From contig JBDRYB010000001.1 in the NCBI GenBank assembly GCA_039803205.1, positions 32,001-96,000 on the forward strand: DNA of 64,000 nt, in the 5' to 3' direction. Under the pieces are notes generated by a model. That model was not told the origin of the DNA and made no database searches. It worked only from the letters and a program-made list of their open reading frames with translations. Within the stretch, counting starts at the first letter, position 1. Each line of letters begins with the position of its first letter. Source of the stretch: a candidate division WOR-3 bacterium. GTDB lineage: Bacteria; Hydrothermota; Hydrothermia; JBDRYB01. A program made the position numbers and the translations under genes. Shown in pieces: positions 481 to 32,237 of this stretch.

Positions 481-2280
481 ATGAGAGCCCTCCTGTTGAT
501 CCCTTGGGGTTGTGGGCTTATCCTTGCCCAGGAGAAGATCCTGATCCCCATGGATGCCTCTCAAACAGACCATCTCAGAGCATATGGTGTTGCCTACAGG
601 ACACTGGCAAGGGGGGTTAATGTTGAGTGGCTTTTGAACTGGGAAGGGGGGAGCTTCATGTGCGATCACAACAAGGCTACAGCGGCCGAGTGCGATTCCC
701 TCGGGGTTTTATATAGGGTAATATCCCCGTCCGAGGCCTCATCCATACACGCGCGGATAGAGGAGGCGAACGCGAACGCGGTTCTTCTTGAAAAGGCACC
801 CAGGGTAGCGGTCTACATCCCGCCATACGAGGAACCATGGGACGATGCAGTTTCCCTTGCTCTTGAATACGCTGGAATACCCTATGACAGGATATGGGAC
901 AGGGAGGTTCTCTCGGGCCAGCTCAGGAAATACGACTGGCTTCACCTTCATCACGAGGACTTCACGGGCCAGTATGGCAAGTTCTATGGTTCATACCGAA
1001 ACGCTCCGTGGTATCTTCAACAGGTTGAGATAAACGAGGCGATCGCGAAGGAGCTGGGATACCCCAATGTCCCTGAGGAAAAAAAGGCAGTCGCGAGGGC
1101 AATAAGGGAATATGTATCGGGGGGAGGGTTTCTGTTCGCGATGTGCTCGGGGCCCATTACCATGGACATAGCGCTTGCCGCGGAGGGCATTGACATCACC
1201 GAGGAGGTGTATGACGGGGATCCGCCTGACCCGGATTTCCAATCAAGGCTTGATTTCAGCAAGGCCATGGCTCTCAAGGACGCGCGGCTCATAACCAGCC
1301 CATACATATACGAGCACTCAGATGTTGATGTAACACGGGAGGCGAGTCTGAGGGGCGAAAATACATATTTCAGCCTCTTTGAGTTCTCAGCGAAATTTGA
1401 CCCCGTGCCCACCATGCTCACCCAGGACCACACTGGGGTTGTCAAGGAGTTCATGGGCCAGGATACGGGTTTCCGGAAGGACAAGCTTAAGCCAGAAGTG
1501 GTCGTAATGGGCCAGGTGGAGGGAACCGAGGAGGCAAAATACATATACGGGGCCTACGGAAAGGGCTTCTTCAGCTTTCTCGGAGGCCATGACCCTGAGG
1601 ACTACCAGCACATGGTAGGCGACCCCCCGACGGACCTCAGACTCCACAGAAACAGCCCAGGCTACAGGCTCATACTCAACAATGTGCTTTTCCCAGCGGC
1701 CAAAAGGGAAAAATTAAAGACATCGGCGCCCGGATGGGGTTTTGCTCTGGTTGGTGGGCCGAGATACACGACCGCGGCTGGGCATGAATCGCCGGGCCTG
1801 TCCTGGGAAATAAGCGCGCTTGGACTCATGGGAATCTCCGCGGGACTAACGAGCGGCCTTGGTTTCGGATTATCATGGTTTGATAGCAGGTCAGGGGATC
1901 TTCCGAATGGGGGCTGCGGCGAGGGTTACCTGGGGAAAGGTTTCAACGGAAGGCTCACTCTTATATGGGATCCCATGGCTGAAAGGATCTCGCAAACCAT
2001 CAGGCCACGGCTTACAGCAGAGGCTATCCTTTTCGGCATCCATTACCGCTATGAAGAAAGGGGTGCAGGTGGAACCCGTGTCTCTCCATGCACCTGGCGC
2101 GTTTTGCCTGTCATCCAGATGAGCGCTGGAGCGACCCTGGGGCCTCATCTGCAGATTGATCTTTCTGTTGCGACCGGGGCGGCCGCGCCAGGAGTCCATC
2201 CCGGTGAAACAATCGGTTATCCGGCATACCCGTGGTCCTTTGCCCTTACCAGCAGGCTCTGGTCCCAAAAACGCGCATGA
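481..2280 (+). CDS. Secreted class I glutamine amidotransferase-like protein (family often labelled 'asparagine synthetase B' in Bacteroidota) with an extra C-terminal beta-barrel-like region
   Basis: Motifs PWDDAV, DWLHLHHEDFTGQYGKFY, FAMCS, GGHDPEDYQH, PGYRLILNNVLFPAA. ATG 481 follows TATAAT 469-474. Confidence 0.7.
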   Translation: MRALLLIPWGCGLILAQEKILIPMDASQTDHLRAYGVAYRTLARGVNVEWLLNWEGGSFMCDHNKATAAECDSLGVLYRVISPSEASSIHARIEEANANAVLLEKAPRVAVYIPPYEEPWDDAVSLALEYAGIPYDRIWDREVLSGQLRKYDWLHLHHEDFTGQYGKFYGSYRNAPWYLQQVEINEAIAKELGYPNVPEEKKAVARAIREYVSGGGFLFAMCSGPITMDIALAAEGIDITEEVYDGDPPDPDFQSRLDFSKAMALKDARLITSPYIYEHSDVDVTREASLRGENTYFSLFEFSAKFDPVPTMLTQDHTGVVKEFMGQDTGFRKDKLKPEVVVMGQVEGTEEAKYIYGAYGKGFFSFLGGHDPEDYQHMVGDPPTDLRLHRNSPGYRLILNNVLFPAAKREKLKTSAPGWGFALVGGPRYTTAAGHESPGLSWEISALGLMGISAGLTSGLGFGLSWFDSRSGDLPNGGCGEGYLGKGFNGRLTLIWDPMAERISQTIRPRLTAEAILFGIHYRYEERGAGGTRVSPCTWRVLPVIQMSAGATLGPHLQIDLSVATGAAAPGVHPGETIGYPAYPWSFALTSRLWSQKRA

Positions 2281-3623
2281 TAATCGCAGAACCCCAGCTG
2301 ATTGAACGCCTCGCTCTTTGGGCAATAAAGGAGCGAATTCCATTTCTGGGGCACTTTGGTCTCACGAGGCACTGCAACCTCATGTGCAGTTTCTGTCTGT
2401 GGGGGAAAAAACTGAAGCCTCGCGGTTTCATGTCACAGTTCCTTTTCAAAAAAGCCCTCTCGGAAATGAAGGAAATGGGCACCTTTGAGATAGAGCTGAC
2501 GGGGGGCGATCCTCTTCTTCATCCGCATCTGCCTGATTTCATAAGGATAGCAACCGATCTCAGATTCGTGATAGCGATAACAACCAACGGCCTCAGGTTA
2601 ACAGAAAGAAACCTGTCTGCGATAAAGGAGGGCCTGATCGCGCATGTTTCAGTGAGCATTCACGGAGCTAAGCCCGAAACCCACGACAGAATAGTGGGAA
2701 GACCAGGGGCCTGGAATATATCCCTCCGCAACATGGAGAAGCTTCTGGATAGTGGCGTAAGAACTATTGTTTGCTTCGTGATCACCAAGGAAAATCACCA
2801 GGAAGTCAAAAATGCCAAAGCCCTCTTTGAGAGCATGGGAGCCAGGTTTCAGATGGTCCTGAAGTTGTATAATCCCTTCTGTCTTGAAGAAGTTGAGGCC
2901 TTGAAGCTCAGGGGCCATGCCCTCGCGGATCTGATGGGCCTCTTCCCTGATCCGCCGGTGTGCCCTCATCCTTGCGGCGCTTTCATGAACGCGGTATATA
3001 TCAACCCCAACGGAGATGTTTGGCCCTGTATATCATTTCCCTTTAACCTGGGCAACATCGGTAAAACTAGCTTCAGGGAAATATGGGAAGGGATAAACAA
3101 GGAGACCAGGGCGCTCCGGAGAAACCTTGTCCGCGCGAGAGAGAAGGGAGTCTACCGCGGAGTAGAGTATTTTTGCCCATCAATAAGTCGTGGATATGAC
3201 GGTTCTCTGGGAGGCCTTGAACCCCATGTAAAGGAGATAATAGACGCCTGGTTGAATGAGAGAAACGAATCGGCCAAGAGCAATTTTTCCCTGGATGAAG
3301 TAGTGTCCCCGGACAGACAAATCGCTATAAAGCTCGGGGAAAATCATGGATTCGTTCCCGAGGACGATGTTGCCTTCAGGTTACTGAGGGGAAGGGAAGA
3401 GACCTACCTTGTTCTTTGGAAGAGATCCACGAGGAGATATGCGGCTCTGGAGGGTCCCTGGGCGGAAGCGGTGAGCTGTATCCTCTCTGGCCAAAGGATC
3501 AAGGATGCCCTAAAAATTTTGGAATCATCATTTAAGGGGTTCCGCATGAGCGAGGCCATAGTGGACATGGAAGCTCTTCTCAGCGAAATAGCCGGCATGG
3601 GTTTCATCAAACTTGCCATTTGA
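2277..3623 (+). CDS. Radical SAM/SPASM(twitch) protein with C-terminal PqqD-like RiPP recognition element
   Basis: CNLMCSFC motif, TGGDPLL, TTNG, CGA...INPNGDVWPC...LGNI. The last ~90 aa show a 3-strand/3-helix PqqD-like pattern ending LLSEIAGMGFI. ATGA overlap with the upstream gene. Confidence 0.8.
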   Translation: MIIAEPQLIERLALWAIKERIPFLGHFGLTRHCNLMCSFCLWGKKLKPRGFMSQFLFKKALSEMKEMGTFEIELTGGDPLLHPHLPDFIRIATDLRFVIAITTNGLRLTERNLSAIKEGLIAHVSVSIHGAKPETHDRIVGRPGAWNISLRNMEKLLDSGVRTIVCFVITKENHQEVKNAKALFESMGARFQMVLKLYNPFCLEEVEALKLRGHALADLMGLFPDPPVCPHPCGAFMNAVYINPNGDVWPCISFPFNLGNIGKTSFREIWEGINKETRALRRNLVRAREKGVYRGVEYFCPSISRGYDGSLGGLEPHVKEIIDAWLNERNESAKSNFSLDEVVSPDRQIAIKLGENHGFVPEDDVAFRLLRGREETYLVLWKRSTRRYAALEGPWAEAVSCILSGQRIKDALKILESSFKGFRMSEAIVDMEALLSEIAGMGFIKLAI

Positions 3624-3643
3624 TCCGGATCACTTATCCGGAT
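3623..3643. terminator. Hairpin between convergent genes (ATCCGGAT-cactt-ATCCGGAT)
   Basis: Two copies of a self-palindromic 8-mer form an 8-bp stem; no clear U-tract. Confidence 0.3.
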
Positions 3644-3661
3644 TCATGGCCCGGTTAAGCG

Positions 3662-3826
3662 CTATTCCTTTTTCGGAGGCGGCGGTGCTGCCTTAGCGAC
3701 CCCTGTGAGGCTCAGGACATCAGCATTCCTTTCCGTGGCCAATATCCTCGGTTTCTCGTAAGGCTTTACCACACGGTCCTTTATCCTCGGGACCCTTCTT
3801 CCCTTATCCTCAGAAGATTTTGCCAT
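3662..3826 (-). CDS. Putative RiPP precursor peptide (54 aa; alternative GTG start at 3772 gives 36 aa)
   Basis: Manual translation: MAKSSEDKGRRVPRIKDRVVKPYEKPRILATERNADVLSLTGVAKAAPPPPKKE*. YxxPx(I/L) leader motif; AAGGA upstream of both possible starts. Confidence 0.65.
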   Translation of the reverse strand: MAKSSEDKGRRVPRIKDRVVKPYEKPRILATERNADVLSLTGVAKAAPPPPKKE

Positions 3827-3840
3827 AATTATATCCTTCA

Positions 3841-4173
3841 TGGAGGCGGGGGGATTCGAACCCCCGTCCAGAGACCCAACCCGTAAAGCACCTACACGCT
3901 TAGCTCGCCCTATTAACGCTCTGGAGGCTGGGCGAGCGAGCCCTTCCAGAGGTTTGCCCCTCTGTTTAACCGGACCCGCGGGGCACGAGCCCGGCGACCC
4001 CGGATCTATGAGGCCCTTCTGGCGCGTCCGGGGAGCGCGGCCAGAGAACCTACGCCCTCAATTAGGCGTATGCGTATGCCTTTTCGGCAGTTATCTTTGC
4101 CGCTTTTTACGGGATGCGGCAACCCGACGTGCGCTTTATCGGGTCTATGGCCCTGTCAAGACCATTCGCCCCC
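3841..4173 (-). ncRNA. ssrA: tmRNA; tag reading frame 4088-4062 encodes AEKAYAYA*
   Basis: 5' GGGGGCG pairs with 3' CGCCTCC-A, giving a G3:U alanine identity pair. T-arm GGGGGTTCGAATCCCC; ATAACT-GCC resume context; CCA not encoded. Confidence 0.95.
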
Positions 4174-4249
4174 AAAGCTAAGGCATATATAATAAAGGTT
4201 TTGCCGTGGAGGATCAAGTGCTTTTATGAGCGGGAATCTCTGGGACCCT

Positions 4250-4804
4250 CTAAATATCAATCAAAATCACCTTTATTGGCACGGCTGGAAAATGCCTCTT
4301 TAACCTCTCAATGTCCTCAATAAGCTGCTCTCCGTAGGAAACGCCGGATGACATTTCCTTGTGTAAGGCATAGGCAGGGACTATTTCTACGCCAGCATCA
4401 CAGTGGCCCTCGTTAAAGAAATACTGGAACTTAGCAAGATCGTAGAACATGAAAGCATACTTGCCCAGCTGAACTTCAACCAGAACCCTATCCTTCTGGA
4501 AATCTATCTGTTTAAACACCTTCACTGAATCAGAAACAAGTCTTTCGTCTTCGTATGGAAACCTCATATCATGATAGCTGCGGAGCTCCTTGAAGCCTCG
4601 CTTTGCAAACGCCCACCTGAACGCTCGGTTCATTTCCTTCGGATCGTAAAGGAGCTTACCTATCTTACCTTTCTCCTTGCTGATCTTGGTCTTCGTAGCT
4701 TGCACTTCTTCTATGATCTCGTCTATTTCGGACTCAATTACAGGGTATCTAACTCTCAATATCTCAAGCCCGCCCAAGTGCGAATACTCATAAACCTTTC
4801 TCAT
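4250..4804 (-). CDS. BglII/BstYI-family type II restriction endonuclease
   Basis: YSHLGGLE N-terminus, QIDFQKDRVLVEVQLGKYAFMFYDL, EMSSGVSYGE; coupled to a methyltransferase. Confidence 0.85.
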   Translation of the reverse strand: MRKVYEYSHLGGLEILRVRYPVIESEIDEIIEEVQATKTKISKEKGKIGKLLYDPKEMNRAFRWAFAKRGFKELRSYHDMRFPYEDERLVSDSVKVFKQIDFQKDRVLVEVQLGKYAFMFYDLAKFQYFFNEGHCDAGVEIVPAYALHKEMSSGVSYGEQLIEDIERLKRHFPAVPIKVILIDI

Positions 4805-5763
4805 AAGAGACTATCCTCCCAGGGTTGTTTTTTACCCGGCGGCTCATATATGGGCGTCCCCATCTCCCGAAGTCTAAGCTTGCCGCAGGAGAACAAATTC
4901 AACCTTTCAAGCCCTATTTTGTAATATCTTTCATTTATCTCTGCTCCGACAAAGCGCCTTCTGTGCTTTATGGCCGCAATCGCGGATGAAGCCACGCCCA
5001 TGAATGGATCGAAGACCCACTCGTCCTCGTTTGTTAATGAGAGGACAAGTCTCTCTATCAGCTCAACCGGAAACTGAGCTGGGTGCTCGGTCTTCTCCGG
5101 GTGATTACACTTGACATTCGGTATATCCCAGACATCTGTAGGGTTCTTGCCTAGGGGATTACAGGAAGGCTTACCTTTATTCGGCCCTTTGTGGAACTTC
5201 TTGCCCGGATACCTCTGAGGAACCCGAACAGCATCAAGGTTAAAGACATAGGGCTCGCCCTTAGTGAACCACATTATAACCTCGTATCTACCAGAAAATC
5301 TCTTGGACGCGTGAAGCCCGTGCCTGAAGTGCCATACTATCCGGTTGCGCATTACGAGGCCGAGATCCCTGAAAATAGGATAAAGCAGATAATCTATTGG
5401 GATTATACTGCTGTTTTTAACCCAATTTCCGACCTGCCAGCATATAGAACCCCCGGTCTTTGTCACTCGTAAAGCCTCTTTTATTATCTCTCTGTGCCAC
5501 CTTACATATTCATCAAGATCCATCTTTTGCTCGTATTCCTTGCCTATGTTGTATGGAGGAGAGGTTACTGTGAGCTGGACGCTTTCATCCGGTATGAAAC
5601 GCACCAGATCAAAAGCTGAGCCCAGATAAAGGCAGGCCTGTGCAGAGCTATCATAGGTGTTCGTTATCCGTATTTCTCTCTGTTGGTGGGGAACATCCAA
5701 CAGAACCGAAGCCTTGCCATTCAGAAGATCAGAAAGAATCCCCAAAGAATCTCGCTCTGCCAT
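4801..5763 (-). CDS. Site-specific amino-DNA methyltransferase (beta class, probably N4-cytosine)
   Basis: TSPPYN catalytic motif precedes the HPAQFP and DPFMG SAM-binding motifs. Confidence 0.9.
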   Translation of the reverse strand: MAERDSLGILSDLLNGKASVLLDVPHQQREIRITNTYDSSAQACLYLGSAFDLVRFIPDESVQLTVTSPPYNIGKEYEQKMDLDEYVRWHREIIKEALRVTKTGGSICWQVGNWVKNSSIIPIDYLLYPIFRDLGLVMRNRIVWHFRHGLHASKRFSGRYEVIMWFTKGEPYVFNLDAVRVPQRYPGKKFHKGPNKGKPSCNPLGKNPTDVWDIPNVKCNHPEKTEHPAQFPVELIERLVLSLTNEDEWVFDPFMGVASSAIAAIKHRRRFVGAEINERYYKIGLERLNLFSCGKLRLREMGTPIYEPPGKKQPWEDSLL

Positions 5764-15819: not shown

Positions 15820-17287
15820 GGCACTATCCCCCAACATATCAAAGCTTCTCAAAGGCGCCAGCGGCCGAGAGATAATAACTAGGCTTTCGGCCCCTGCCTT
15901 CAAAAACAGGGCCGTGAGGAAGGGGCTTCTGCTATACATTAAGTCCCAGATAAACCGAGGGAACTACTCCGCGATCGTTGCGGGGAATAGGCCGCCCGGA
16001 GTCAAAAGGGATGTAGCGTGGGCCGCGTGGGCCTTGTTGAGATCACTAGATAGGGCCATAGAGGACAAAAGGCTCTCTCACAGGTTCGCGGGGAGGCTGG
16101 TTGAGGTTTTTCTGAACAACATGGTGGCAAGCTGGGCCGATAGGGGAGAAATAAGCGGGTTTTTCAAAAACAAGGGGGAGAAAGGCCCGCCCGGTTTCCT
16201 GGTCATCAGCCCCGCTAAGGCGTGCAACCTCAGGTGTCCGGATTGCTACGCGGCCTCAGGCGCAAACCCTGAGAAGCTCAGCGCGCGCGAGTTCCGGAGG
16301 ATAATCACGGAGGCAAAGGAGCTCTGGGGGGTCCGTTTCTTCGTGATCTCCGGCGGAGAACCTTTTCTATGGAGGGACGGGGATACCCGGTTCCTTGATG
16401 TGGTTGAGGAAAACCCCGATTGCTTTTTCATGGTTTATACGAACGGAACCCTGATAGAGGATGAGGTCGCTGACAGGCTCTCAGAGCTCGCTAATCTTAC
16501 CCCGGCAATATCCCTGGAGGGCTTTGAGGAGGAGACGGACAGCAGAAGGGGAAAGGGCACATACGAGAAGGTCCTCGGCGCAATGGCAAGGCTCAGAAAG
16601 AGGGGTATACCCTTCGGAATATCCCTCACTGCTACCAAGAGAAATTACAGGCTTCTGCTTTCTGATGGGTTCCTCAGCGAGTTCTTTGAGCGTCAGGGCG
16701 CGACATACGGTTGGATATTCCAGTATATGCCCATAGGCAGGGATCTGGATCTCTCGCTGATGCCAAGCCCGGAAGAAAGGCTATGGATGTGGAGGCGCGG
16801 GTGGGATGTGATAAGGAAGAAGGGTTATTTCCTGATGGACTTCTGGAACCAGGGAACGGTCTCAGCCGGGTGCATATCTGGCGGAAGGCACACGGGATAC
16901 CTTTACATAGACTGGAACGCTAATGTGTATCCGTGCGTCTTTGTTCCCTATGCCGGCGCGAACCTCAGGGAGATATACGCCAGGGGAGGGACGATAACCG
17001 AGGCTTACGATTCGCCGCTTTTCAGGGCAATAAGGCGATGGCACGACGCTTACGGGTATGGTAAAACAGAGCCCAATAAGCACAAGAACTGGCTCGCGCC
17101 GTGCCTCATAAGGGATCACTTCCGCGTGCTCAAGAGGCTTGTGGAAAGACACGGGGCAAGGCCGGCGGATACGGTGGCCGCTGAGCTCATAAAAAACCCC
17201 GAACACGGGGCATTCATGGAGGAATACGATAGGGTTTTCTCTGAGCTCACTCAACCGATATGGAAAAAGGAATATCTAGGGCCGTAG
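15809..17287 (+). CDS. Radical SAM protein with C-terminal SPASM/twitch-like region
   Basis: CNLRCPDCY, ISGGEPF, YTNGTLI, GCISGG...YIDWNANVYPCVF, PCLIRDH. Confidence 0.85.
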   Translation: MEVKALSPNISKLLKGASGREIITRLSAPAFKNRAVRKGLLLYIKSQINRGNYSAIVAGNRPPGVKRDVAWAAWALLRSLDRAIEDKRLSHRFAGRLVEVFLNNMVASWADRGEISGFFKNKGEKGPPGFLVISPAKACNLRCPDCYAASGANPEKLSAREFRRIITEAKELWGVRFFVISGGEPFLWRDGDTRFLDVVEENPDCFFMVYTNGTLIEDEVADRLSELANLTPAISLEGFEEETDSRRGKGTYEKVLGAMARLRKRGIPFGISLTATKRNYRLLLSDGFLSEFFERQGATYGWIFQYMPIGRDLDLSLMPSPEERLWMWRRGWDVIRKKGYFLMDFWNQGTVSAGCISGGRHTGYLYIDWNANVYPCVFVPYAGANLREIYARGGTITEAYDSPLFRAIRRWHDAYGYGKTEPNKHKNWLAPCLIRDHFRVLKRLVERHGARPADTVAAELIKNPEHGAFMEEYDRVFSELTQPIWKKEYLGP

Positions 17288-17931
17288 GCCTCGGGGTCTT
17301 CGCAGTAGCAATGGCATACCTTGAGTCCGCCGTAGTTATTTATCTGAGAAGGCTTTATTACCCTGAGGGCTTCTCCTTCCCAATGAAGCTGGCAGATCCG
17401 TTTGTTGCCGCGGTTGAGGTGGGTCGCGAGCTGGCTACCATAATCATGCTCGGGGCCCTTGGTTTTCTCTCAGAAAGAACTCACGCGAGGCGTTTTCTGG
17501 CGTTTCTCTTTGTTTTCGGAATATGGGATATGTTCTATTACCTATGGCTCAAGGTCTTTCTCGGTTGGCCATCTGGTTGGCTTGACTGGGATGTCCTCTT
17601 TCTCTTTCCGGTTCCATGGTTCGCTCCCTGGATAACACCGACCCTCGTTGCTCTCGTCCTCTCATTTGTATCTGGAACCCTGCTGTTGATGGCTCGGAAC
17701 GGCCGGGAAATAAGGATCGGCCTCCCTGAAATCGCCCTTGGGGTCCTCGGGTCCCTCGCATGCCTGTTCTCCTTCACATTTGACGGGTTCAGGCTCGCTC
17801 TCCGCGGCGTTGATGCGATCAGGGCCTTCGTGCCGGTCAGGTTCCTGTGGGAGGCCTATTTGCCGGGGCTCACGCTCATCACGGTAGCTGGTGGGATTGT
17901 CGTTGAGCGAAACCGGGGCTCTGGTGTATAA
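17260..17931 (+). CDS. Integral membrane hypothetical protein
   Basis: About 6 hydrophobic helices; AMAYLESAVVIYLR, WDMFYY, DVLFLFPVPW. Confidence 0.7.
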   Translation: MEKGISRAVGLGVFAVAMAYLESAVVIYLRRLYYPEGFSFPMKLADPFVAAVEVGRELATIIMLGALGFLSERTHARRFLAFLFVFGIWDMFYYLWLKVFLGWPSGWLDWDVLFLFPVPWFAPWITPTLVALVLSFVSGTLLLMARNGREIRIGLPEIALGVLGSLACLFSFTFDGFRLALRGVDAIRAFVPVRFLWEAYLPGLTLITVAGGIVVERNRGSGV

Positions 17932-17939
17932 TATGAGGT

Positions 17940-18473
17940 ATGGCCAAAATAAGACAAAATGTGCTTTCCGGAATAGGCAAGCTCTTTCTGAGAGCCGCGA
18001 AACGAGGCCTCATGCCAAAGAGGATCGCTTATACACTCGTCGGTCTCGCCACATCCCTTACAGGCGCGTCAAAAGGCCCCTGCGCTGTGATGTGCTATGA
18101 GGTTCCACCAACAGAACCGTGGATCTCTAGGGTTCTGATCACCAAGAATCCGCTGAGGGGCAAATTCAGGCTAACAGCCACCATAAAAAGCAACGAGAGG
18201 CCTGTGGGCGGTGCTGATGTCAATTTTTGGGTATGGAAGGATGGCCAGGCAGAGGTGTTTCGCGTTGTCCCCATGAACCCGGCTGATGGGGCGTTTGATT
18301 CTCTAACGGAGGAGGCATATGCCGATCTGGCCCTATGGGGATGGCCCCAAGGAACGAAGATGAACATTTCCGCTTACGACAAGGATGGGAATCACGGCAC
18401 CCCACTCAGGATTGGCGTTGAGGTGATGTTCGGGATCCTTTCATTTGAATGCGAGGAGATAGTGGGCTATTGA
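17940..18473 (+). CDS. Putative exported protein with CAVMCY motif and Ig-like domain
   Basis: Basic N-terminus, hydrophobic stretch, GPCAVMCYEVPP, then a beta-rich domain with PMNPADGAFDS..E. Confidence 0.6.
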   Translation: MAKIRQNVLSGIGKLFLRAAKRGLMPKRIAYTLVGLATSLTGASKGPCAVMCYEVPPTEPWISRVLITKNPLRGKFRLTATIKSNERPVGGADVNFWVWKDGQAEVFRVVPMNPADGAFDSLTEEAYADLALWGWPQGTKMNISAYDKDGNHGTPLRIGVEVMFGILSFECEEIVGY

Positions 18474-19495
18474 GCGACAAACCAGTTCTCGCGGCCGCTT
18501 TTGAGACAACTCCCAGGTGCAACGCCAACTGTTTGTATTGTTATAATGTCTGGAAGGCTCATCCGGACTATCCAAGGGGGGAACCGGACGCGGAGGGTCT
18601 CCTCCGGGTCCTTGATGCCATCCTTAAGAGCGAGCGGGTGACCATCGTGAGCCTAACCGGCGGAGAGCCACTGCTTCTGGGCGATCTCATCCTTGAGATG
18701 GGCGCTATGGCGAGGCTTTCAGGAAAATCCGTGAACCTCGTCACCAACGGTTCTCTTATCAGCAAAGGCTTTGCCAAGAACCTCAAGAGGCTCAGCATAA
18801 GGCCCGTAGAGATAACCCTCCTATCAGCAAGGGAGGAGTTGCACGATTCCTTGCAAAGAGCGAGGACATTCCGGAGCGCAGTTAGCGCCATAAGGACAGT
18901 GGCTGATGTCGGCGGGGAAGCAATAGTTGGCATAGTCGGAACGAAAGCAAACATTCCCTTTCTCTCCGAGACCCTTGAATTCGCAAAGACCCTCGGAGCC
19001 AAGGGCGCCATGTTCACCAGGTTCAACCCCGGCGGCCAGGGGCTTAGGCACTGGCGGGAGCTCGGGCCTTCCAAGGAGGAACTCAGGTCAGCCATAAAAA
19101 CCCTTATGAAATTTGCCGACGAAAACCCAAACCTGACTATAACCTGCGGCGTTCCTATTCCCCCATGCGTTCTAGGTTTCACTGACTACGGAAGGGTAAA
19201 GATGGGTTATTGCAACGCTGGGGGCGATCTCATAGCCATAGATTGGCTCGGAAACCTCCGTCCGTGCAACCATTCCTCCCTTATAGTGGGGAACATACTC
19301 AAGGTGCCCCTTGATGAGCTTCTGGAATCAAAGCGGTTAAAGGATTTCATGCTCCCTGTGCCTAAGATGTGCGTCGGTTGCCAGTTCTACGATCTATGCA
19401 AGGGGGGTTGCCGGGCCGCGGCATTTGAGATGGCTTGGTGGCTCAGGAAGGAAAGGTCTGCTGGGTCCATCCGGTTTTCCGGACACACCATCTAG
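18470..19495 (+). CDS. Radical SAM/SPASM domain protein
   Basis: CNANCLYCY; SPASM cysteines CNAG...RPC...CVGCQFYDLCKGGC. TTG start overlaps the upstream TGA. Confidence 0.85.
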   Translation: MSDKPVLAAAFETTPRCNANCLYCYNVWKAHPDYPRGEPDAEGLLRVLDAILKSERVTIVSLTGGEPLLLGDLILEMGAMARLSGKSVNLVTNGSLISKGFAKNLKRLSIRPVEITLLSAREELHDSLQRARTFRSAVSAIRTVADVGGEAIVGIVGTKANIPFLSETLEFAKTLGAKGAMFTRFNPGGQGLRHWRELGPSKEELRSAIKTLMKFADENPNLTITCGVPIPPCVLGFTDYGRVKMGYCNAGGDLIAIDWLGNLRPCNHSSLIVGNILKVPLDELLESKRLKDFMLPVPKMCVGCQFYDLCKGGCRAAAFEMAWWLRKERSAGSIRFSGHTI

Positions 19496-31814: not shown

Positions 31815-32237
31815 CTATCTTTTTCTAGGGGGTAGCCTCCTTGAGGCTCGGAGCTGGTTCTTTATGATCCGGCCTACCAGGAGTCCAACCCCAACCGGAA
31901 AACCCCTCCACCGGATTATCACTTGGCCATCCGGCCAGGGGAAATCCCCCTCTATGTTCTGGCCGTAAAGAAAGCCCTTGGCCTCGTTCTCCTCCAGATC
32001 AAGGGCGCGCAGGGTCGCACTTTTCCCTATGGCCATCGCCCCCTCGGCGGTGAGCTTCCAGCCATCTGAGGTTCTCTGTGCTAGCTTTATCCCAGTTCTC
32101 AGGATAGGCCCTTTGATCTCGTGGGCTTCCGGCGTTGAAATCCAGGCCTCCTTGCCCTGGACCCTTATCGCCAATCCCTCCCAGAATCCCCCGGGAATTC
32201 CGAATCTCTCTGAGAGGGGTCTCGTTATCTCTTTCAA
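31815..32237 (-). CDS. PUA-like protein resembling the RsmF/NIP7 C-terminal domain
   Basis: RTGIKLA....WKLT.EGA..IG..AT...LDL...EA..FL.G...GQVIIR..G.PVG.G......KNQL. Confidence 0.6.
   Translation of the reverse strand: MKEITRPLSERFGIPGGFWEGLAIRVQGKEAWISTPEAHEIKGPILRTGIKLAQRTSDGWKLTAEGAMAIGKSATLRALDLEENEAKGFLYGQNIEGDFPWPDGQVIIRWRGFPVGVGLLVGRIIKNQLRASRRLPPRKR

Follow-up and report, generated by a model that had tools for sequence, protein, structure and literature searches.

The closest described counterparts of the system reported here are the linear polyphosphorylated peptides (LPPs) of the lpp cluster of Paenibacillus alginolyticus, which were described in 2026 as restricted to Bacillota and whose final product is given as unknown there (PMC13381572). 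According to that report, LPP precursors follow the consensus YxxPxVLxHQxIxFETxxS, in which the phosphorylated serine lies 18 residues after the leader tyrosine (Y+18), and the core genes encode an RRE (recognition element for RiPPs, peptides made by the ribosome and modified after translation), an HprK-like kinase, an NTP transferase, a SipW-like peptidase, and an exporter. D70 of LppB holds the leader tyrosine, F74, M78, and L83 line pockets, and LppK left S3T and S3Y variants unphosphorylated. Here we analyzed 64,000 nucleotides from a candidate division WOR-3 bacterium (the window; positions 32,001 to 96,000 of contig JBDRYB010000001.1, assembly GCA_039803205.1), in which a radical S-adenosylmethionine (SAM) enzyme with a C-terminal RRE faces a 54-aa precursor-like peptide.

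Several other described systems are relevant. Lasso peptide kinases add phosphate to a Ser at the C-terminus, and hexose addition requires PsmN (PMC6993621). In SkfB and CteB, the auxiliary cluster is bound by three cysteines and has an open iron site (PMC8326336). Known radical SAM enzymes that act on cores lacking Cys and aromatic residues are TqqB, which forms a Thr-Gln ether, and the epimerase EpeE/YydG; epimerization by EpeE needs a cysteine as hydrogen donor (PMC9389541, PMC8326336). In the literature within reach, which leaves out most subscription journals, no paper was found on the combination described below, and nothing relevant was found on HPr-rel-A with PqqD, on SynChlorMet, on radical SAM with HprK, RRE, and precursor, on WOR-3 RiPP radical SAM enzymes, or, judged by title or abstract start, on radical SAM enzymes with a C-terminal RRE.

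The enzyme gene (448 aa; 2277..3623, plus strand) and the peptide ORF (3662..3826, minus strand) lie on opposite strands with 38 nt between their stops, as a preliminary description of the window had stated. That description is confirmed in its observation and partly supported in its interpretation. Our favored reading, to which we assign about an even chance, is a dispersed LPP-like pathway: a set of PqqD, HprK-like kinase, and nucleotidyltransferase, encoded in trans on contig C21 of the same genome (G000), phosphorylates the peptide, and in family f1 the RRE-fused enzyme also modifies it in a Ser/Thr-Pro-rich core. If this is true, the LPP design extends from Bacillota to another phylum, and a substrate can be named for a kinase-PqqD-nucleotidyltransferase cassette that usually seems orphan, its precursor lying far off and here behind the transfer-messenger RNA (tmRNA) gene. 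The enzyme and the 54-aa peptide would also form a small, direct system for new radical SAM chemistry, with the tailless f2 and tailed f1 peptides as natural controls. Here f1 (3 genomes), f2 (12 genomes), and f8 (7 genomes) are family codes of a set of 272 phylum genomes, and the class comprises 64 genomes. Co-occurrence counts across these genomes do not constitute a statistical test because the genomes are kin and hence not independent.

Judged by its conservation, and not by its motif, the peptide ORF is a real coding gene. The motif [YW]xxPx[ILVMFA] occurs in 44 of 1230 small intergenic ORFs of this genome that bear a Shine-Dalgarno sequence; as a leader motif by itself, YxxP is therefore at chance level. 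It is nevertheless kept in 23 of 23 aligned homologs, and so, without variation, are RRVP, KPYxKP, and a single Leu farther on; in the window the motif reads KPYEKPRI (residues 21–28; 3743..3766, minus strand), with K, P, Y, K, and P fixed. When the genome was scanned with a stricter motif, there were 6 matches, of which only this ORF had a credible start and leader layout. Among six f1 loci (15 pairs), codon differences were 91 synonymous vs 18 non-synonymous, and f2 peptides (36 pairs) showed 300 vs 151, indicating purifying selection. The peptide matched 25 database proteins, from records labeled Candidatus Hydrothermia and candidate division WOR-3; the ORF had been thought to be missed by annotation, but database gene callers do annotate it (P0082, P0083). 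The 36-aa version starting at GTG, also suggested earlier, is unlikely because the RRVP upstream of that codon is invariant in 23/23. A Shine-Dalgarno-like GAAGGA (3834..3839, minus strand) precedes the ATG. The peptide gave only matches under 0.9 in the ESM Atlas. P0254 (409 aa) clusters with the peptide but is GTPase-like and unrelated to it, and was treated as a database artefact. Elsewhere in the genome, a 60-aa ORF with a strong ribosome site carries a WxxPxI-like motif (G000:C23:25230-25409).

A Ser, Thr, or Tyr lies three residues past the invariant Leu (L+3) in 25 of 25 homologs, 18–20 residues after the YxxP Tyr. The position is exactly Y+18 in the 8 f1-type peptides (Ser in five, Thr in three), Y+19 in three further tailed peptides, and Y+20 in f2. 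In this genome it is Thr41 (3704..3706, minus strand), the proposed phosphorylation site. At or just after this residue 14 of the 25 homologs, all f2-type, end, one with an extra Pro; f2 peptides end in Ser or Tyr. The other 11 continue with a Pro-rich tail, here residues 42–54 (3665..3703, minus strand), which is absent from f2 peptides and is the proposed radical SAM substrate region. The only invariant feature of the tail is P-x-[P/T]-P (16/16 tailed homologs). The core consists only of Ser/Thr, Pro, Lys, and aliphatic residues. The reported lack of Cys, Trp, Tyr, and His holds for this core and for the tail in 16/16 tailed homologs, except that Trp, Tyr, or Phe directly precedes the conserved hydroxyl residue in 3/16. 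In line with the preliminary description, neither Cys nor a conserved aromatic residue is available in the core.

At E < 1e-15, the peptide was found in 15 of the 272 phylum genomes, namely 3/3 of f1 and 12/12 of f2; five weak matches (E 0.003–0.03) were left out. In these (G004, G021, G048, G049, and G160), two ORFs are antisense to a neighboring membrane-protein gene and three lie in frames of 257–392 aa, and they were rejected. The enzyme at E < 1e-200 was confined to the three f1 genomes. One of the 12 f2 genomes had any enzyme match at 1e-15, a generic one, and the RRE domain of the enzyme was found in none of the 12. All 12 f2 genomes thus carry the peptide but lack both the enzyme and its RRE domain; the peptide predates the enzyme. 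The Pro-rich tail and the enzyme co-occur in f1.

In contrast to the enzyme, the kinase set tracks the peptide throughout. PqqD (PF05402), the HprK-like kinase, and NTP_transf_5 (PF14907) were each present in 3/3 f1 and 12/12 f2 genomes, that is, in 15/15 peptide-bearing genomes. One run on C21 comprises genes for polysaccharide export, for a PqqD that stands alone, for an HprK-related kinase-like protein, and for NTP_transf_5, with no precursor nearby; the same run, behind the polysaccharide-export gene, is found in f1, and in f2 the kinase stands apart from PqqD in the 7 loci viewed. The PqqD of G003 passes TIGR04353 (40.9 vs 35 bits). Among the other families of the class, the kinase is common only in f8. 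Small PqqD-domain proteins with a twin-arginine-like start (RRxFLK) also occur in f1 and f2 (G000:C10:29013-29180 [L032]; L031, L033, L034, L035, L037, and L137); the f2 forms seem to lack the first RRE sheet strands, and these proteins are possibly exported RREs.

Compared with the LPPs, the system here shares the YxxPx[V/I]L leader, the hydroxyl residue at Y+18, a discrete RRE, the HprK-like kinase and NTP transferase (in trans at G000:C21), and the link to polysaccharide genes, and neither has lasso ring residues. It differs in its phylum (WOR-3), its dispersed genes, the Thr or Tyr allowed at the hydroxyl site, the absence of the HQxIxFET segment, the extra RRVP motif, the RRE-fused radical SAM enzyme and Pro-rich tail of f1, and a SipW-like peptidase and cluster exporter that were not found. 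The proposed pathway would work like that of the LPPs but falls outside their membership: no SipW-like peptidase was found, the genes are not clustered, and the middle of the leader differs. No protease or exporter was adjacent to the peptide at the loci viewed. This had been noticed in the preliminary description and counted there among the unusual features of a new system; we attribute it to the dispersal of the pathway.

With the tailoring of paeninodin and pseudomycoidin (PadeK, PsmK, and PsmN; PMC6993621), the system shares an HprK-like kinase and an uncharacterized nucleotidyltransferase, and the terminal Ser or Tyr of f2 peptides resembles the phosphorylated C-terminal Ser of those lasso peptides. 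Unlike them, the core has no Asp/Glu at positions 7–9, no B2 peptidase was found, and the f1 hydroxyl residue is internal. No macrolactam cyclase is adjacent to the locus; no genome-wide search for a cyclase was made. The same parts, namely a radical SAM/SPASM enzyme, PqqD, HprK-related kinase, and nucleotidyltransferase, also make up SynChlorMet, HPr-rel-A, and GeoRSP, which are known from NCBIfam models only. Here, on the other hand, the second cluster is lost, the precursor is Cys-free, the genes are scattered, and the enzyme scores 58 bits against ScmE, 80 against ScmF, and 74 against GeoRSP, far below the cut-offs of 400. Full-SPASM relatives in other phylum families lie in compact cassettes with PqqD, an S24-like peptidase, NTP_transf_5, and YxxP-type small ORFs; the kinase-like neighbors in them (294–302 aa) have no Pfam match and are named by position only. 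Because these relatives share such cassettes, the enzyme and the kinase set plausibly belong to one pathway by analogy. Some full-SPASM cassettes (L140, L144, L146, L147, L070, and L078) have Cys-containing YxxP/WxxP small ORFs and are SynChlorMet-like.

The enzyme matched PF04055 (E 3e-24) and, over only 52 of 67 positions, PF13186 (E 2e-9). Nine full-length orthologs (49–56% identity) were found among 75 matches; against 50%-identity representatives, there was a single full-length family member, and the next match covers only the barrel. The CxxxCxxC motif for the SAM cluster (C33, C37, and C40; 2373..2396, plus strand) is invariant in 10/10 orthologs. Beyond it, the only invariant cysteines (10/10) are C233, C251, and C300 in the auxiliary-cluster region (2973..3176, plus strand), so the second SPASM auxiliary cluster, whose ligands are absent, appears to have been lost and one auxiliary cluster to be left. 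CxxCx4-6C is absent in 10/10 orthologs and present in 90 of 115 scorable relatives, and the enzyme lacks the full two-cluster SPASM cysteine set. The initial SPASM label needs correction, in that the domain is truncated. Spare cysteines are C166 (9/10 orthologs, with Gly in one that keeps the peptide) and C229 (7/10), neither of them invariant. SkfB is the best solved-structure match, both by profile (E 4e-39) and by fold, and EpeE matches only the N-terminal barrel (E 2e-12). The three-cysteine auxiliary cluster and the presence of an RRE are shared with the thioether-forming SkfB and CteB. In these enzymes the RRE is N-terminal and the substrates supply Cys, whereas here the RRE is C-terminal and core Cys, a mark of sacti- and ranthipeptides, was found in 0/16 tailed homologs.

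The C-terminal domain (3330..3620, plus strand) was missed by PF05402, a search that had been proposed as a check, and by sequence searches of solved structures; the structure match decided in its favor. The model of this domain (about 97 residues, 352–448; pLDDT 94.5) is best matched by lasso B1 proteins (TbiB1, Z 11.9, rmsd 1.8, 84 aligned; 6jx3 B1, Z 11.2; the next unrelated structure, Z 9.5), and also by PqqD 5sxy (Z 8.6). Foldseek gave a probability of 1.00 and TM 0.70–0.73 with E of only 2.5e-3 to 2.4e-2, and TM was 0.76 to a PqqD cluster. The model thus predicts a winged helix of three strands in a sheet and three helices, with the lasso-type RRE fold, and the domain is PqqD-like as originally claimed. 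D430 and L434 are invariant in 10/10 and spaced as LppB D70 and F74, and I438 and F443 are spaced as M78 and L83; the residues were paired by their intervals along the last helix rather than by superposition. By this pairing the Asp-lined tyrosine pocket is predicted to be kept. The RRE position matching the LN asparagine is Glu in 9/10 orthologs.

The next-best enzyme relative in the phylum (G032; E 3e-49) has the same three-cysteine pattern, and its locus encodes, in order, a 35-aa precursor, a 328-aa radical SAM enzyme, a separate 89-aa RRE-like gene, and an ABC transporter. The 89-aa gene aligned with the C-terminal domain by hhalign (E 2.4e-4, probability 43%). As this split arrangement suggests, the simplest reading of the C-terminal position is that the RRE of the enzyme arose by fusion of a formerly separate, adjacent downstream gene. 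A search of GTDB genomes for further split-type relatives returned only the G032 locus. The G032 match in our genome search with the RRE arose by construction, since the G032 protein was in query alignment A4, and was discounted. In the G032 precursor, Leu replaces the YxxP Tyr and the core contains Pro and Cys; its stand-alone RRE-like gene has Glu at the position of the pocket Asp. This locus, G032:C99 (L063 / L099), is a separate compact cluster that also has an outer-membrane-type gene.

In the favored pathway, the peptide would be translated from the tmRNA primary transcript, and the stand-alone PqqD of C21 would bind the YxxPxI leader and present the peptide to the adjacent HprK-like kinase. 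The kinase would phosphorylate the conserved Ser/Thr at Y+18, and the neighboring NTP_transf_5 protein may add a sugar to the phosphate. Only in f1, the peptide would have gained the Pro-rich tail, and the enzyme's own RRE would dock on the same leader; the 5'-deoxyadenosyl radical would then take a hydrogen from the Ser/Thr-(Pro/Gly)...PxPP core, and an oxidative step would be completed by the one three-cysteine auxiliary cluster, in which one iron site would be open. That the enzyme modifies the peptide is what we infer from these features. The enzyme more likely acts oxidatively than as an epimerase. Given that it acts on the peptide, a C-O or C-C crosslink near the hydroxyl residue or the prolines has roughly an even chance, proline desaturation or another proline change is rather unlikely, and epimerization, one of the chemistries suggested at the outset, is unlikely and is disfavored because no spare cysteine is invariant. 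EpeE/YydG has no close sequence relation to the enzyme. The open iron site and fixed hydroxyl recall the Thr-Gln ether of TqqB. An ether at the conserved hydroxyl residue would compete with its phosphorylation. As a tentative proposal, the enzyme would install in the polyproline tail an undescribed crosslink or proline modification (e.g. dehydroproline, or Ser/Thr-O bonded to a Pro/Gly carbon); the linear peptide, made from the tmRNA transcript, would be phosphorylated and perhaps glycosylated, and a new WOR-3 RiPP class with scattered genes would be defined.

Several observations weigh against this pathway. The main gap is f8, in which PqqD (7/7), the kinase (6/7), and NTP_transf_5 (6/7) occur with no detectable peptide (0/7 genomes by profile search, 0/5 in a second search, and 0/24 promoter-SD matches). 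The kinase scores 54.7 bits vs the TIGR04352 cut-off of 200, and f2 kinases are only 27–35% identical to it. The residue at Y+18 here is Thr, whereas LppK rejected S3T and S3Y. Searches of 5 genomes turned up neither a SipW-like nor a B2-like leader peptidase; each had one strong S26 match and a LexA-like S24 protein, and the PF13471 matches were transglutaminase-like proteins of 460–505 aa. In a quick tree, the fused and the split enzymes join weakly (SH-aLRT 80). Tail and enzyme together count as one evolutionary event, confined to a single genus, and the 7 linked loci include 3 near-copies. Additionally, the facing arrangement may be plain synteny because, in the 8 loci compared, the peptide follows tmRNA in 8/8 and the enzyme follows a class-wide gene in 8/8, and the pair itself is split onto different contigs in G002.

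These neighbor ties, tighter than that of the pair (7/8), bear on the best-surviving alternative, in which the peptide serves only the PqqD-kinase-nucleotidyltransferase set, the enzyme has another substrate, the facing is coincidental, and the tail stays unmodified as a spacer or shields the C-terminus. We regard this as doubtful. The enzyme-less f2 genomes and 43 other small YxxP-like ORFs in the genome favor it; the enzyme, on the other hand, keeps the Tyr-type pocket (D430, 10/10), its appearance coincides with that of the tail, a precursor with Pro lies directly upstream of its nearest split relative, and the stricter motif scan singled out this ORF. The self-contained RiPP system of two genes and new chemistry that the preliminary description had proposed, with the kinase set unrelated to it, is improbable. 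The convergent orientation it noted does recur beside enzyme homologs in 7/8 loci, the RRE fold is there, and f8 has the kinase set with no detectable peptide. This view, however, leaves enzyme-less the peptides of 12 f2 genomes, which track the kinase set elsewhere and are under purifying selection, with the leader and the L-x-x-[S/T/Y] end kept, TATAAT upstream in all 11 loci scored (the twelfth has Ns), and a downstream hairpin (-9 to -30 kcal/mol) in 9 of 11. Least probable of all is that the peptide stays unmodified, as a small protein occupying or regulating RRE proteins (e.g. the PqqD beside the polysaccharide exporter), in f1 under tmRNA control: RRVP equals YxxP in invariance while the LPP consensus has nothing that corresponds to it, the core left in f2 peptides would be just some 3 residues long, and the leader peptidase search of 5 genomes was negative, but the hydroxyl residue is fixed in 25/25 homologs, at the LPP spacing or within 2, and kinase and nucleotidyltransferase accompany every peptide-bearing genome.

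The tmRNA gene (3841..4173, minus strand; tag AEKAYAYA), which the preliminary description did not contain, directly precedes the peptide in all 8 f1-type loci. The peptide ATG is 14 nt past its CCA end, and the peptide is probably on the tmRNA primary transcript. A sigma-70-like promoter match upstream of tmRNA (4189..4217, minus strand) is weak, with 1 found vs 1.9 expected by chance. A 9-bp hairpin between the convergent stops (3622..3644) is a possible terminator. RNA data (three runs, assembled contigs only) covered tmRNA in runs X1 and X2 and gave one contig each over parts 2990-3225 and 3456-3654 of the enzyme gene; none lay over the peptide, and since contigs cannot show absence, they are silent on its expression. 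One X1 contig joins tmRNA position 4145 back to 3867 (3867-4145), which points to a circular tmRNA or an assembly artefact. A mobile island at tmRNA was rejected because there is no integrase among the neighbors and the layout is stable in 8 loci.

The class-wide conserved gene upstream of the enzyme (481..2280, plus strand) has no Pfam or NCBIfam match, and its stop overlaps the enzyme start (ATGA). With homologs in 60 of the 64 class genomes, it is probably a neighbor and not part of the pathway; as the enzyme is not class-wide, this gene is also unlikely to be the enzyme's substrate. It is about 410 aa elsewhere, and most f1 loci, not L091-L093, have a variable C-terminal extension of about 190 aa (1720-2280), which does not resemble the upstream neighbor of the G032 cassette. 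Directly upstream of tmRNA, 4250-5763 encodes a BglII-like endonuclease and an N4/N6 methyltransferase at lower GC (0.48); in other f1 loci this place is taken by an FtsX/MacB-type ABC permease or by different genes. In f2, where the peptide gene stands alone, it is followed by a membrane acyltransferase-like gene (PF07786/PF01757) in 11 of 12 loci (L041-L054). Farther along the window, at about 16200-19300 (G000:C1:48214-51381; L168 and L170), two more radical SAM genes each lie beside a near-identical ORF of about 178 aa.

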